Shown here: positions 59,301-64,000 of the stretch, piece by piece
How the letters are laid out: each line of letters starts with the position of its first letter
Position numbering within the stretch: the first letter of the stretch is position 1
From: Escherichia coli
GTDB taxonomy: Bacteria; Pseudomonadota; Gammaproteobacteria; Enterobacterales; Enterobacteriaceae
Assembly (NCBI RefSeq): GCF_017348835.2
Contig: NZ_CP071375.1
Length of the DNA: 64,000 nucleotides
Strand: one strand, 5' to 3'
Made by a program: the position numbers

Positions 59301-62300
59301 AATGGTAACTGAACGTACGGCCCATAACCCACGCCATAATGACCAAGCGTACTACCGAAGCGGTGAGGTTCAGTCCGTTGCAGTTTCGGGTTCGCCATCC
59401 CTGCAACATCAATAAAGCCGCCCATCCCCAAAATGGTGTTCAGGAAAAAGCGGGTAAAGTGGACCATCCCCTGATAAGGGTCGCCCTGCAAGAAGTAGTT
59501 AACCATCACCGCAGGTTCTTCAAGGTTGCCGGTAAAGTTGCTCAAACCGTTACGCGCCGGTTGCGGAACATAATCACGCCAGGCGACAGCGACCGGTCGA
59601 ACAATATACGGGTCTAGTACGTTGAAGTTGAAGTTGTACATGGTGCGGTTGAACCCTTCTAACGGGTCAGAACGCCCTTGCTGATCTGTACCGGAACTCG
59701 CACACCCCACCAGAAGCGTAGTTCCCAGAGCAAGCGCCGACAGGCGAAGCTTCATAAATGTCTCCCTGTTTTTTTATGGCTTATGCAGTTTGCCATCCAT
59801 GACGGAACGATACCGTATCCGCCTGTTTAGGTGTGGGCGATTGTAACAGCACGTCAACTGATGTCCAGACGCCCTGATTTGCTGATTTGATCATAGCCTG
59901 GTAATCGCCGCCCTGTAGGCTACTTGATTCTATGGAAACAGAAAAAGGCAAACGCGGCCTTTTCTACATTTTCAGAGTAACTCCCGCCAGTTGCGAGCAA
60001 AAAAGCCGCTACGCTTTAGCTATACGTGCTAATTCAAGAGAAGAGACCATGGACAACGACAAAATTGATCAACACAGCGACGAAATTGAAGTTGAGAGCG
60101 AAGAAAAAGAGCGTGGCAAAAAAATAGAAATAGATGAAGATCGACTCCCCTCCCGGGCGATGGCAATTCATGAGCATATCCGCCAGGATGGTGAAAAAGA
60201 GCTGGAACGCGACGCAATGGCACTACTGTGGTCAGCCATTGCGGCGGGTCTGTCGATGGGCGCTTCATTACTGGCAAAAGGGATATTTCATGTCGAACTG
60301 GAAGGTGTGCCGGGCAGCTTCTTGCTGGAGAATCTCGGTTATACCTTTGGTTTTATTATCGTCATTATGGCCCGCCAGCAATTATTTACCGAAAACACCG
60401 TGACTGCGGTACTACCCGTCATGCAAAAACCGACAATGAGCAACGTTGGCTTACTTATGCGGTTATGGGGCGTCGTGCTGCTGGGTAATATTCTCGGGAC
60501 AGGTATTGCGGCGTGGGCATTTGAATATATGCCAATCTTCAATGAAGAAACTCGCGATGCATTTGTCAATATCGGCATGGATGTGATGAAGAACACCCCC
60601 AGCGAGATGTTTGCCAACGCGATCATTTCCGGCTGGCTGATCGCCACTATGGTATGGATGTTTCCTGCAGCGGGTGCGGCAAAGATTGTGGTGATTATAT
60701 TGATGACCTGGCTTATTGCCCTGGGTGACACCACCCACATCGTTGTCGGTTCTGTTGAAATCCTCTATCTGGTGTTTAACGGCACGCTGCACTGGAGCGA
60801 TTTCATCTGGCCCTTCGCACTACCTACTTTAGCGGGGAACATCTGCGGCGGCACCTTTATCTTCGCGTTAATGAGTCATGCACAGATCCGTAACGACATG
60901 AGCAACAAGCGCAAAGCAGAAGCACGCCAAAAAGCAGAACGTGCGGAAAACATTAAGAAAAATGATAAAAACCCGGCATAAATGGCGAGGGTTTAAGCAA
61001 TCGAGCGGCAGCGTACTTACCCCGCAGTCCATTAGCGGGTATACTCATGCCGCATTGTCCTCTTAGTTAAATGGATATAACGAGCCCCTCCTAAGGGCTA
61101 ATTGCAGGTTCGATTCCTGCAGGGGACACCAGATACCCTTCAAACCAAATCTACCTTCACCCCGTAAAAGATGGGTTTGGCAGCACACTTGCCCTATATC
61201 TACTCATTTTTACTGCAACAGGTTGAAATCTCAGCACTGTCAGAAAGCGCTGATGACTAAACAGCCCTGGGCCGGGCGATGTAACCATCACACAGAATCC
61301 TGATAGCGAAATATGGCGTGACTCGATACTTCACTCCGCAATGCATTCCTTGATGAATTCGCAGGCCCGTAATACACGGGACAGGTCGCTGAATGACGAC
61401 AATGTCCTGGAAATCAGCGAACCGTGTATCCGGAGTACATTTGAGCGACTGTACCAGAACATGAATGAGGTGTTTGGATTAGGCGATTATTAGCAGGCCT
61501 AAGCATTTTAGTATTATTATTTTCCGGTTGAGGGATATGGAGATATCGACAACAACCGGAAAAAGTTTATGTCTATATTGCTGAAGGTACAGGCGTTTCC
61601 ATAACTATTTGCTCGCGTTTTTTACTCAAGAAGAAAATACCAAATAGCAACATCAGGCAGACAATACCCGAAATTGCGAAGAAAACTGTCTGGTAGCCTG
61701 CGTGGTCAAAGAGTATCCCAGTCGGCGTTGAAAGCAGCACAATCCCAAGCGAACTGGCAATTTGAAAACCAATCAGAAAGATCGTCGACGACAGGCGCTT
61801 ATCAAAGTTTGCCACGCTGTATTTGAAGACGGATATGACACAAAGTGGAACCTCAATGGCATGTAACAACTTCACTAATGAAATAATCCAGGGGTTAACG
61901 AACAGCGCGCAGGAAAGGATACGCAACGCCATAATCACAACACCGATAAGTAATGCATTTTTTGGCCCTACCCGATTCACAAAGAAAGGAATAATCGCCA
62001 TGCACAGCGCTTCGAGTACCACCTGGAATGAGTTGAGATAACCATACAGGCGCGTTCCTACATCGTGTGATTCGAATAAACCTGCATAAAAGACAGGAAA
62101 GAGTTGTTGATCAAAAATGTTATAGAAAGACCACGTCCCCACAATAAATATGACGAAAACCCAGAAGTTTCGATCCTTGAAAACTGCGATAAAATCCTCT
62201 TTTTTTACCCCTCCCGCATCCGCCGCTACGCACTGGTGATCCTGGTCTTTAAAACACATGTTGATCATCATAAATACAGCGCCAAATAGCGAGACCAACC

Positions 62301-64000
62301 AGAAGTTGATATGGGGACTGATACTAAAAAATATGCCGGCAAAGAACGCGCCAATAGCATAGCCAAAAGATCCCCAGGCGCGCGCTGTTCCATATTCGAA
62401 ATGAAAATTTCGCGCCATTTTTTCGGTGAAGCTGTCAAGCAAACCGCATCCCGCCAGATACCCCAAGCCAAAAAAGAGCGCCCCCAGAATTAGACCTACA
62501 GAAAAATTGCTTTGCAGTAACGGTTCATAAACGTAAATCATAAACGGTCCGGTCAAGACCAGGATGAAACTCATACACCAGATGAGCGGTTTCTTCAGAC
62601 CGAGTTTATCCTGAACGATGCCGTAGAACATCATAAATAGAATGCTGGTAAACTGGTTGACCGAATAAAGTGTACCTAATTCCGTCCCTGTCAACCCTAG
62701 ATGTCCTTTCAGCCAAATAGCGTATAACGACCACCACAGCGACCAGGAAATAAAAAAGAGAAATGAGTAACTGGATGCAAAACGATAGTACGCATTTCTG
62801 AATGGAATATTCAGTGCCATAATTACCTGCCTGTCGTTAAAAAATTCACGTCCTATTTAGAGATAAGAGCGACTTCGCCGTTTACTTCTCACTATTCCAG
62901 TTCTTGTCGACATGGCAGCGCTGTCATTGCCCCTTTCGCCGTTACTGCAAGCGCTCCGCAACGTTGAGCGAGATCGATAATTCGTCGCATTTCTCTCTCA
63001 TCTGTAGATAATCCCGTAGAGGACAGACCTGTGAGTAACCCGGCAACGAACGCATCTCCCGCCCCCGTGCTATCGACACAATTCACAGACATTCCAGCAA
63101 AATGAACCGCCCCGGAAATCCTGGAGACTAAACTCCCTGAGAAAGAGGTAAACAGGATGACTAAAAATACTCGTTTTTCCCCCGAAGTCCGTCAGCGGGC
63201 GATTCGTATGGTTCTGGAAAGTCAGGATGAATATGACTCACAGTGGGCGGCAATTTGTTCCATTGCCCCAAAGATTGGCTGTACGCCGGAGACTCTGCGT
63301 GTCTGGGTTCGCCAGCATGAGCGGGATACCGGGAGTGGTGATGGTGGACTCACCACCGCTGAACGTCAGCGTCTGAAAGAGCTGGAACGTGAAAATCGTG
63401 AACTGCGCCGCAGTAACGATATCCTTCGCCAGGCTTCCGCTTATTTTGCGAAGGCGGAGTTCGACCGCCTCTGGAAAAAATAATGCCACTGCTGGATAAG
63501 CTGCGTGAGCAGTACGGGGTCGGACCGGTATGCAGCGAACTGCATATTGCCCCGTCAACGTATTACCATTGTCAGCAACAGCGACATCATCCGGATAAAC
63601 GCAGTGCCCGTGCGCAGCACGATGACTGGCTGAAGAAAGAGATACAGCGCGTATACGATGAAAATCACCAGGTATACGGTGTGCGTAAAGTCTGGCGTCA
63701 GTTGTTACGGGAAGGTATCAGAGTGGCCAGATGCACTGTGGCACGTCTCATGGCAGTTATGGGACTTGCCGGTGTTCTCCGGGGTAAAAAGGTCCGCACT
63801 ACCGTCAGCCGGAAAGCCGTTGCCGCATGCGACCGCGTAAACCGTCAGTTCGTGGCAGAACGTCCAGACCAGTTGTGGGTGGCTGATTTTACCTGGGTAA
63901 GCACATGGCAGGGCTTCGTTTATGTGGCGTTCATCATTGATGTGTTCGCCGGATACATCGTGGGATGGCAGGTCTCATCATCCATGGAAACAACATTCGT

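Follow-up and report, generated by a model that had tools for sequence, protein, structure and literature searches.

Introduction

The csc regulon for non-PTS sucrose utilization is known from E. coli EC3132, W and O157:H7 EDL933 (z3623-z3626), where it lies at the argW-dsd locus. In these strains dsdX is truncated and dsdA is retained. The argW-csc-dsd arrangement and the cscKB operon have been described repeatedly (PMC3032704, PMC4366372, PMC7486766, PMC11251922, PMC3938415); cscK lies upstream of cscB in one operon (PMC3938415), and the operators of CscR are two palindromes in the cscK-cscA intergenic region (PMC11251922). IS-disrupted csc loci occur in Shigella and some STEC; the IS elements interrupt cscK or cscB and leave cscA and cscR intact (PMC11251922).

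Two kinds of mobile elements are relevant for comparison. KplE1 (CPS-53) and other argW prophages use an attachment site with the 15-nt core CTGCAGGGGACACCA at the argW 3′ end. The IS629/IS1203 elements of Shigella sonnei and E. coli O157:H7 are 1310 bp long, have TGAACCGCCCCGG termini, duplicate 3-4 bp of the target and produce transposase by a -1 frameshift with an ALIL pseudoknot.

Here we describe the region downstream of argW in a 64,000-nucleotide stretch of E. coli contig NZ_CP071375.1 (hereafter, the window). We conclude, with a probability of about 0.93, that this region is the standard csc allele of the E. coli argW-dsd locus, carrying an IS629/IS1203-type insertion in cscK. A chromosomal csc cluster adjoining argW with an IS in the fructokinase gene is ordinary and has been described previously; the first-pass annotation likewise regarded the locus as a known type of variable locus and not as a new system, which holds.

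Organization of the csc Locus

The window differs from the genome of E. coli PE164 (pig, China) by 5 substitutions in 64 kb, with 0 indels. It stops within the IS, and all content beyond position 64000 was therefore taken from PE164, where the remainder of the IS is followed by the AAA target duplication, the 5′ part of cscK, cscA, cscR, the truncated dsdX and dsdA. In the PE164 annotation, argW is followed by a spacer with a DUF4942 scar and then by cscB and cscK (both on the minus strand), cscA, cscR, truncated dsdX and dsdA. The features within the window are listed in Table 1.

Table 1. Features of the argW-csc region in the window.
Feature	Position	Strand	Evidence and remarks
argW, tRNA-Arg(CCU), anticodon CCT	61057..61131	+	ARAGORN; Rfam RF00005, 63.4 bits
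Spacer, 441 bp	61132..61572	.	always accompanies csc; GC 45.4%
DUF4942 gene, internal fragment	61275..61476	+	distant blastn; Pfam PF13708
Annotated 50-aa ORF	61341-61493	+	z3622 of EDL933; RefSeq "DUF4942 domain-containing protein"
Hairpin, 9 nt downstream of cscB stop codon	61520..61563	-	RNA fold -17.8 kcal/mol, z = -2.99 vs shuffles
cscB, sucrose:H+ symporter, LacY family, intact, 415 aa	61573..62820	-	ORF; TIGR00882
cscK 3′ fragment, last 211 nt of 915, codon 235 to stop (last 70 codons)	62892..63102	-	NF006957
IS629/IS1203-type IS3-family element, left 898 bp of 1310	63103..64000	+	NF033516; RF01497; PE164 copy
IRL	63103-63127	+	IS left end
orfA	63157-63483	+	NF033516, 44 bits
ALIL frameshift pseudoknot	63438-63554	+	RF01497, 120 bits
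orfB	~63480 to past window end	+	NF033516 transpos_IS3, 165 bits

The first-pass annotation had recognized the tRNA-Arg(CCU), a spacer of ~440 bp, an intact cscB, the cscK 3′ end and an IS3-family element, and each of them lies where it had been placed. It had also put cscA and cscR outside the window; they are absent because the window ends inside the IS. Extension into PE164 recovered the IS right end, the cscK 5′ end, cscA and cscR, so that the description of the locus as an islet remnant has to be abandoned: the regulon is complete except for the split cscK.

The identification of the genes as csc, proposed earlier from the sequence alone, was borne out by both protein models and identities to E. 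coli W. CscB scored 593 bits against the oligosaccharide MFS transporter model TIGR00882 (cut-off 220). Its residues 11-399 align to LacY structures (E 1e-63), and it has counterparts of LacY E126 (as D129), R144, R302, H322 and E325. From E. coli W CscB, which has been studied functionally, it differs by three substitutions (R189C, K193Q and S246A). The cscK 3′ fragment aligns with positions 239-302 of the fructokinase model NF006957 (302 positions) and includes the PfkB GAGD motif, and the uninterrupted allele of strain F2_81 reaches 505.7 bits with this model (cut-off 450). When the IS is removed, the rebuilt CscK is identical to that of F2_81. In PE164, outside the window, CscA matches TIGR01322 (477 bits, cut-off 356), CscR gives LacI-family matches, and DsdA matches the D-serine ammonia-lyase model (810 bits).

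Compared with E. coli W, the csc proteins are 98.5-99.3% identical (CscB 412/415, rebuilt CscK 302/304, CscA 470/477, CscR 327/331), and exact matches in the window were found for the published E. coli W primers cscB_F2 (62797-62820), cscB_R2 (61573-61596) and cscOP_Rc (61398-61419). Two GTTAACGTTAAC palindromes occur in the cscK-cscA intergenic region of PE164 (locus positions 18094-18109 and 18158-18173), beyond the window. Thus, the CscB symporter, the split CscK gene and the location between argW and a truncated dsdX are present together with CscA, CscR and the two operators of PE164. Genes, order, orientation, chromosomal position and boundaries are the same as in EC3132, W and EDL933, including the truncation of dsdX and the retention of dsdA. 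The locus differs from those described in that, besides the three CscB substitutions relative to W, cscK is split by an IS after nt 704; in addition, no prophage is present at argW, unlike in W and F2_81.

Spacer Downstream of argW

The spacer had been left unassigned in the first-pass annotation, but part of a DUF4942 gene, which corresponds to z3622 of EDL933, lies within it; z3622 and its promoter have been described (PMC7486766). The fragment shows 72-76% nucleotide identity to nt ~244-445 of full-length 846-nt DUF4942 genes, which come after yeeU/cbtA/DUF5983/DUF957. A longer in-frame translation matched positions 5-62 of 190 of Pfam PF13708 (E 9e-10), and a search of the annotated 50-aa ORF against NCBIfam gave no match. 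Judging by these similarities, we read the fragment as the scar of the distal module of a CP4-type island. The spacer occurs as often as csc, in ~2620 genomes.

The hairpin beside cscB is a possible terminator of cscKB, although it has no clear U-tract and was not called by a simple terminator scan.

Boundaries of the csc Segment

Homology between csc-positive PE164 and a csc-negative genome stops at 61131, directly after the last base of the tRNA; the earlier observation that the K-12-like (dsdCXA) arrangement is left at this point is thereby confirmed. On the far side, homology to the dsdCXA genome is regained within dsdX, 218 bp from its end. This boundary lies inside dsdX, so that dsdC and the 5′ portion of dsdX have given way to the segment. 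The csc segment amounts to 5.56 kb (6871 bp with the IS and the duplication) and stands in place of 2368 bp, comprising dsdC and 1120 bp of dsdX. It is not a pure insertion relative to empty-site genomes.

The last 15 nt of argW (61117-61131) are the attachment core common to the argW prophages. In E. coli W this 15-mer, at the right end of the prophage, immediately precedes the same spacer, and where genomes carry a prophage, the spacer match begins at window position 61109 or 61117. Here the core occurs once, so that the argW site is unoccupied (an empty attB), and KplE1 and the other argW prophages have no counterpart in the window.

The first-pass annotation had interpreted the locus as an islet integrated at the tRNA. 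In the strict form of this interpretation, csc would be the cargo of an island site-specifically integrated in argW, of which the DUF4942 fragment is the last trace. The boundary located exactly at the tRNA 3′ end, the CP4-type gene fragment between argW and cscB that co-occurs with csc, and the slightly lower GC content of the csc segment (48.1% vs 50.9%) are consistent with this. However, no integrase was found between argW and dsdA in the window and the PE164 annotation. The direct repeat of the argW 3′ end that was expected to mark the island boundary was not found either: the argW-end 23-mer has a single occurrence in the window with up to 3 mismatches allowed, and the 15-mer a single occurrence in 30.9 kb of PE164 with up to 2. 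Furthermore, the DUF4942 piece is an internal gene fragment and not an island end beside attR, while the far boundary within the dsdX coding sequence points to recombinational replacement. We consider site-specific integration improbable. On its sequence, the csc segment is best read as a replacement allele at a recombination hotspot and not as a site-specifically integrated island.

Insertion Element in cscK

The IS begins at 63103 with TGAACCGCCCCGG. The full element is 1310 bp long in PE164 (locus positions 15972-17281), and its terminal inverted repeats of 25 nt match at 22 of 25 positions (TGAACCGCC...GGCGGTTCA; the right end is taken from PE164). This agrees with the size (1.2-1.6 kb) and the imperfect, TG...CA-ended repeats of IS3-family elements. 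The orfA and orfB genes are joined by a programmed -1 frameshift, also annotated by PGAP, and encode a DDE transposase. The length, termini, duplication size, frameshift and ALIL pseudoknot are shared with IS629/IS1203. PGAP names the element only "IS3 family transposase". It is 96.0% identical at the nucleotide level to IS1203 of O157 Sakai, i.e., it diverges from the O157 copies by ~4%, and by the usual ISfinder convention we take it to be an isoform of IS629/IS1203.

Comparison with the empty site of F2_81 places the insertion after cscK nt 704, with duplication of AAA; F2_81 has a single AAA, and window positions 63100-63102 are one copy of the target-site duplication. This is a simple insertion.

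A target-site motif was considered, because the IS left end, when searched by BLAST, gave alignments at unrelated loci that ran 17-25 nt into the cscK flank. It was dropped: eight insertion sites share no flank consensus and have in common only duplications of 3-4 bp (AAA, CTTT, AAA, GGC, AAAC, GTT, AAT and GGG).

Distribution Among E. coli Genomes

The cscB-cscK′ segment was found in 2649 of 5426 complete E. coli genomes, only on chromosomes; the median was one copy per genome and the maximum two. The claim of a strain-variable locus thus holds in that the segment is absent in about half of the genomes. The segment is not rare, however: its presence in the other half goes halfway towards the common state in most genomes that the first-pass annotation itself had named as evidence against its view. 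As to the lineages sharing the junction, the exact IS junction (cscK nt 704 with the AAA duplication) was found in a single one of the 5426 genomes, PE164, with 100% identity over the junction. Only this junction is strain-specific.

Insertions of the IS629 type occur at six or more independent positions in the 3.5-kb argW-cscB-cscK-cscA stretch, in O157:H7, O111:H8, and pig and meat isolates. The locus is in this respect similar to the IS-disrupted csc loci of Shigella and some STEC, from which it differs in the site at cscK nt 704, found only in PE164. All 16 genomes with such an insertion contain many copies of the IS family (11-39 places per record), and therefore chance insertions are to be expected. 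A broader suggestion is that in IS-rich pathogenic lineages, as in Shigella, the recurrent hits go beyond chance and reflect selection for silencing sucrose uptake or for adjusting cscA/dsdA expression, and, separately, that csc may have entered E. coli on a CP4-type argW island, of which the DUF4942 scar would be a sign. We regard this as speculative and rather unlikely.

Predicted Effect of the Insertion

In the csc regulon, CscB brings in sucrose together with a proton, CscA, a GH32 invertase, splits it, and the fructose is phosphorylated by CscK, while CscR, a LacI-family protein, represses the divergent cscKB and cscA promoters. In this strain, which is PE164 or an isolate nearly identical to it, the 1310-bp IS629/IS1203-type element has transposed into cscK after nt 704 with a 3-bp duplication, as the sole change in the regulon. 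CscK is predicted to be inactive, because the insertion parts the N-terminal 235 codons from the GAGD catalytic motif. In addition, cscB is probably poorly expressed owing to a polar effect, because it lies downstream of cscK in one operon, behind 1.3 kb of an IS read in antisense. A consensus promoter scan of the minus strand in the IS-cscB interval and inside the IS found none, but the same scan misses the known csc promoters, so that a weak internal or IS-borne promoter for cscB is possible. From the loss of CscK and the polarity on cscB, the strain is predicted to be sucrose-negative or slow, with weak or no use of sucrose. It should be kept in mind that many csc-positive isolates with no visible defect also fail on sucrose (PMC11251922), and therefore genotype predicts phenotype poorly at the csc locus.

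The insertion might instead be regulatory, with transcription running outward or reading through from the right end of the IS altering cscA and the downstream dsdA while sucrose uptake is off. The transposase has the same orientation as cscA, the IS lies upstream of cscA with its right end toward it, rearrangements in this region are known to reactivate dsdA by read-through (PMC7486766), and the insertions recur along the stretch at the several positions given above. We consider this very unlikely, however: the promoter scan revealed no promoter-like site at the IS right end, cscA is separated from dsdA by the opposite-strand cscR and the truncated dsdX, and the richness in IS copies of 16/16 genomes with such an insertion makes chance hits expected. 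Hardly tenable at all is a decayed islet in which the IS deleted or displaced the cscK 5′ part, cscA and cscR and left cscB with a cscK stub; such loci exist in Shigella (PMC11251922) and the window shows only cscB and the cscK 3′ end, but PE164, the sole genome with the exact junction, has the IS right end and the AAA duplication and runs on without a break into the rest of cscK, then cscA and cscR, which refutes this for PE164.

Significance

The simple insertion into a standard csc allele matters little beyond strain typing. A complete gene cluster may be mistaken for a remnant when it is cut inside an IS at the end of a window. The choice between csc and dsd at argW is a textbook case of phylogroup-structured metabolic polymorphism, in which the use of sucrose or of D-serine is linked to the niche choice of EHEC and UPEC. 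The window adds one more natural csc knock-down allele, cscK::IS629-like, from a pig diarrhoea and blood isolate, which could account for a negative or late sucrose reaction in diagnostic media.

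Organization of the csc locus next to argW

The sole tRNA gene found by ARAGORN between 55000 and 64000 is argW, preceded by its usual neighbours: fadL, a yfdF-like gene, mlaA and yfdC. [quoted passage not shown] Its naming was also mostly correct, apart from the term "remnant" and the notion of site-specific tRNA integration. According to NCBIfam, the 415-aa ORF encodes an oligosaccharide MFS transporter, the short minus-strand ORF matches the final 64 positions of NF006957, a model for fructokinase, and the last two ORFs belong to an IS3-family transposase (NF033516, OrfB part 165 bits).

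Features of the window considered in this part
Feature	Position	Strand	Details
Substitutions relative to PE164	1650, 26563, 43087, 43476, 50525
rpnB (recombination-promoting nuclease)	~16904-17806	-	pseudogene with internal stop per PE164 annotation
yfdF-like gene	57532-58605	+	GC 33.7%
tRNA-Arg (argW)	61057-61131	+	anticodon CCT; Rfam, 63.4 bits
Spacer	61132-61572		441 bp
DUF4942-like segment	61275-61476	+	distant blastn
50-aa spacer ORF	61341-61493		z3622-like
cscB, 415-aa ORF	61573-62820	-	TIGR00882, 593 bits (cut-off 220)
Gap between cscB and cscK 3′ ORF			71 bp
cscK 3′ ORF, 66 aa	62892-63092	-	frame open to 63102
IS start	63103		first bases TGAACCGCCCCGG...
IS orfA, 108-aa ORF	63157-63483		second frame overlaps it
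ALIL frameshift pseudoknot of IS3-family elements	63438-63554		Rfam, 120 bits

When 61132-64000 was searched by megablast in 5426 complete E. coli genomes, one full-length 100% match was obtained: PE164 (NZ_CP114128.1), a pig isolate (diarrhoea and blood) from China, which differs from the window by 5 substitutions and 0 indels over 64 kb. The window stems from PE164 itself or from a nearly clonal strain. The sequence past 64000 was read from PE164 as a proxy, and what it says of the source strain is inferred. In PE164, argW is followed by a 50-aa "DUF4942" ORF, cscB (-), the 3′ part of cscK (-) and the IS, and beyond the right end of the IS by the 5′ part of cscK (-), cscA (+), cscR (-), the last 218 bp of dsdX, dsdA, emrYK and evgAS. 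The impression of a remnant was created by the window ending inside the IS. Judging by this gene order, the csc regulon is complete.

The function of csc was dissected in E. coli W, whose csc layout is that of the window but lies downstream of an argW prophage. The first-pass identification of cscB and cscK was borne out by comparison with this strain: CscB is identical at 412/415 positions (differences R189C, K193Q and S246A), the rebuilt CscK at 302/304, and CscA and CscR of PE164 at 470/477 and 327/331. With a score of 505.7 against a cut-off of 450, the uninterrupted cscK allele qualifies as a fructokinase equivalog; CscA likewise scores above its TIGR01322 cut-off (477 vs 356), and DsdA is a full D-serine ammonia-lyase. 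Residues 11-399 of CscB align to LacY structures (E 1e-63), with counterparts of E126 (as Asp129), R144, R302, H322 and E325 kept, while E269 corresponds to Val and Glu270 sits three residues on. Published E. coli W primers for both cscB ends and one within the spacer match the window exactly. All defining features of the csc regulon that are open to testing are present at the locus.

Replacement of dsd genes beside argW

In the csc-negative genome NT1F34, argW is followed by 95 bp, dsdC, dsdX and dsdA in that order. Homology with PE164 breaks off at the final argW base (window 61131) and is regained 218 bp short of the dsdX end; therefore, the csc segment (5.56 kb, or 6871 bp if the IS and the target duplication are counted) replaces 2368 bp, namely dsdC and most of dsdX.

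An island integrated site-specifically into the tRNA gene, as initially proposed, is rejected: no integrase was found at the csc segment, its far boundary lies in dsdX, and the direct repeat of the argW 3′ end that was expected to mark the boundary is lacking, with no second copy in the window (23-mer, ≤3 mismatches) or in 30.9 kb of PE164 (15-mer, ≤2 mismatches). In W, F2_81 and O157, an argW prophage lies between the tRNA and the same csc spacer, and the attachment core CTGCAGGGGACACCA is duplicated at the prophage right end. In the window, where the 3′ end of argW occurs once, the attachment site is therefore empty. Going by these sequence comparisons, the csc segment is a replacement allele beside argW and did not integrate into the tRNA.

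A replacement allele agrees with the published description of the argW-dsd locus by Jahreis 2002 and by Moritz and Welch 2006. [quoted passage not shown]

Strains differ in what occupies argW: E. coli W and F2_81 have lambdoid prophages with torI, adjoining the csc spacer; ST131 has a P2/P4-like element that carries sce7725/sce7726 genes; and O157:H7 has a segment with a recombinase.

The yfdF-like gene is a second small variable locus of the window. It has a very low GC content and a DIDIDIDI repeat, and it is a mosaic relative to K-12-type YfdF (92% identity in the first 130 aa and 75% in the mid-part, an internal duplication and an unrelated C-terminus). In an ST131 genome the gene is absent and fadL adjoins mlaA.

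The spacer and the frequency of csc

The spacer, at first called unassigned, carries a DUF4942 fragment. Its 50-aa ORF, corresponding to z3622 of EDL933, had no NCBIfam match. However, the DUF4942-like segment shares 72-76% identity with the interior of full-length DUF4942 genes at other E. coli loci, and Pfam PF13708 aligns over its positions 5-62 of 190 with a translation begun ahead of the annotated ATG; therefore, the spacer holds an internal fragment, or scar, of such a gene. In one example, the DUF4942 gene lies at the distal end of a CP4-type island, after a yeeU/cbtA/DUF5983/DUF957 module. The scar and csc co-occur in ~2620 genomes, and thus the scar is old; this hints at an old island trace next to argW. 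In EDL933, z3622 has an active promoter (PMC7486766). A hairpin 9 nt past the cscB stop (-17.8 kcal/mol, z = -3.0) may be an operon terminator, a function we infer.

The cscB-cscK′ segment was found in 2649 of the 5426 complete genomes (49%), always on the chromosome; the median copy number per genome is one and the maximum two. In unbiased collections csc reaches 35–37%, mainly in phylogroups B1, D and E (PMC11251922). The locus is strain-variable, as first suggested, yet very common rather than rare.

The IS element in cscK

The full IS in PE164 is 1310 bp long and ends in inverted repeats of 25 nt (22/25 matching). Its sequence is 96.0% identical to a Sakai IS1203 copy; the element has every testable defining feature of the IS629/IS1203 type of the IS3 family. 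It lies after nt 704 of the 915-nt cscK with AAA at either end, while the identical gene in F2_81 is uninterrupted and has one AAA at this point. The IS thus entered by simple transposition without adjacent deletion.

Among the 5426 genomes, this exact junction is present in PE164 only. In eight O157:H7 genomes IS1203 has inserted independently, 80 bp deeper into cscK (CTTT duplication), and same-family elements were found in the spacer (O111:H8), the cscK-cscA intergenic region (CEC13091), cscB (Res13, pig) and the cscB-cscK junction (MA11), all with their own 3–4 bp duplications. In total, 16 complete genomes have such insertions, at no fewer than six positions (at least) in the 3.5-kb argW-cscB-cscK-cscA stretch (loci L001, L003 and L010-L013), and the lineages are unrelated (O157:H7, O111:H8, pig and meat isolates). 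Because all 16 carry many IS copies (11–39 places per record; 31 in PE164), chance hits on csc are expected. No target consensus was found among the eight insertion sites compared.

The IS left end also aligns by BLAST at unrelated loci, and these alignments reach 17–25 nt into the cscK flank (window 63086-63102), and CAGACATT...AAA is common to the window site and the Sakai abgT insertion (locus L004, 1800-1816). A shared target flank was rejected, the resemblance not being seen at the other sites examined.

Predicted consequences for sucrose utilization

In the established pathway, sucrose enters by CscB symport and is hydrolyzed by CscA, and CscK phosphorylates fructose; CscR represses the divergent cscKB and cscA operons, and cAMP-CRP activates them (PMC3938415, PMC6599523). 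Growth on sucrose needs cscB and cscA (PMC3938415), and in CC119 STEC a cscB frameshift, not a cscK frameshift, blocked sucrose fermentation (PMC10132054).

The IS cuts CscK between its first 235 codons and the GAGD motif near the C-terminus, and CscK is therefore expected to be inactive. Its loss alone is probably tolerable. What weighs more is that 1.3 kb of IS, transcribed in the antisense direction, now precedes cscB, which makes polarity on cscB likely. A scan found no promoter-like site on the minus strand, either within the IS or from there to cscB; as it also misses the known csc promoters, its result counts for little.

The csc locus is real and already explained; nothing in it is new in kind, and the insertion site is the sole strain-specific fact. 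We consider it somewhat more likely than not that the strain would be sucrose-negative or slow on sucrose, and this phenotype might revert if the IS were lost.
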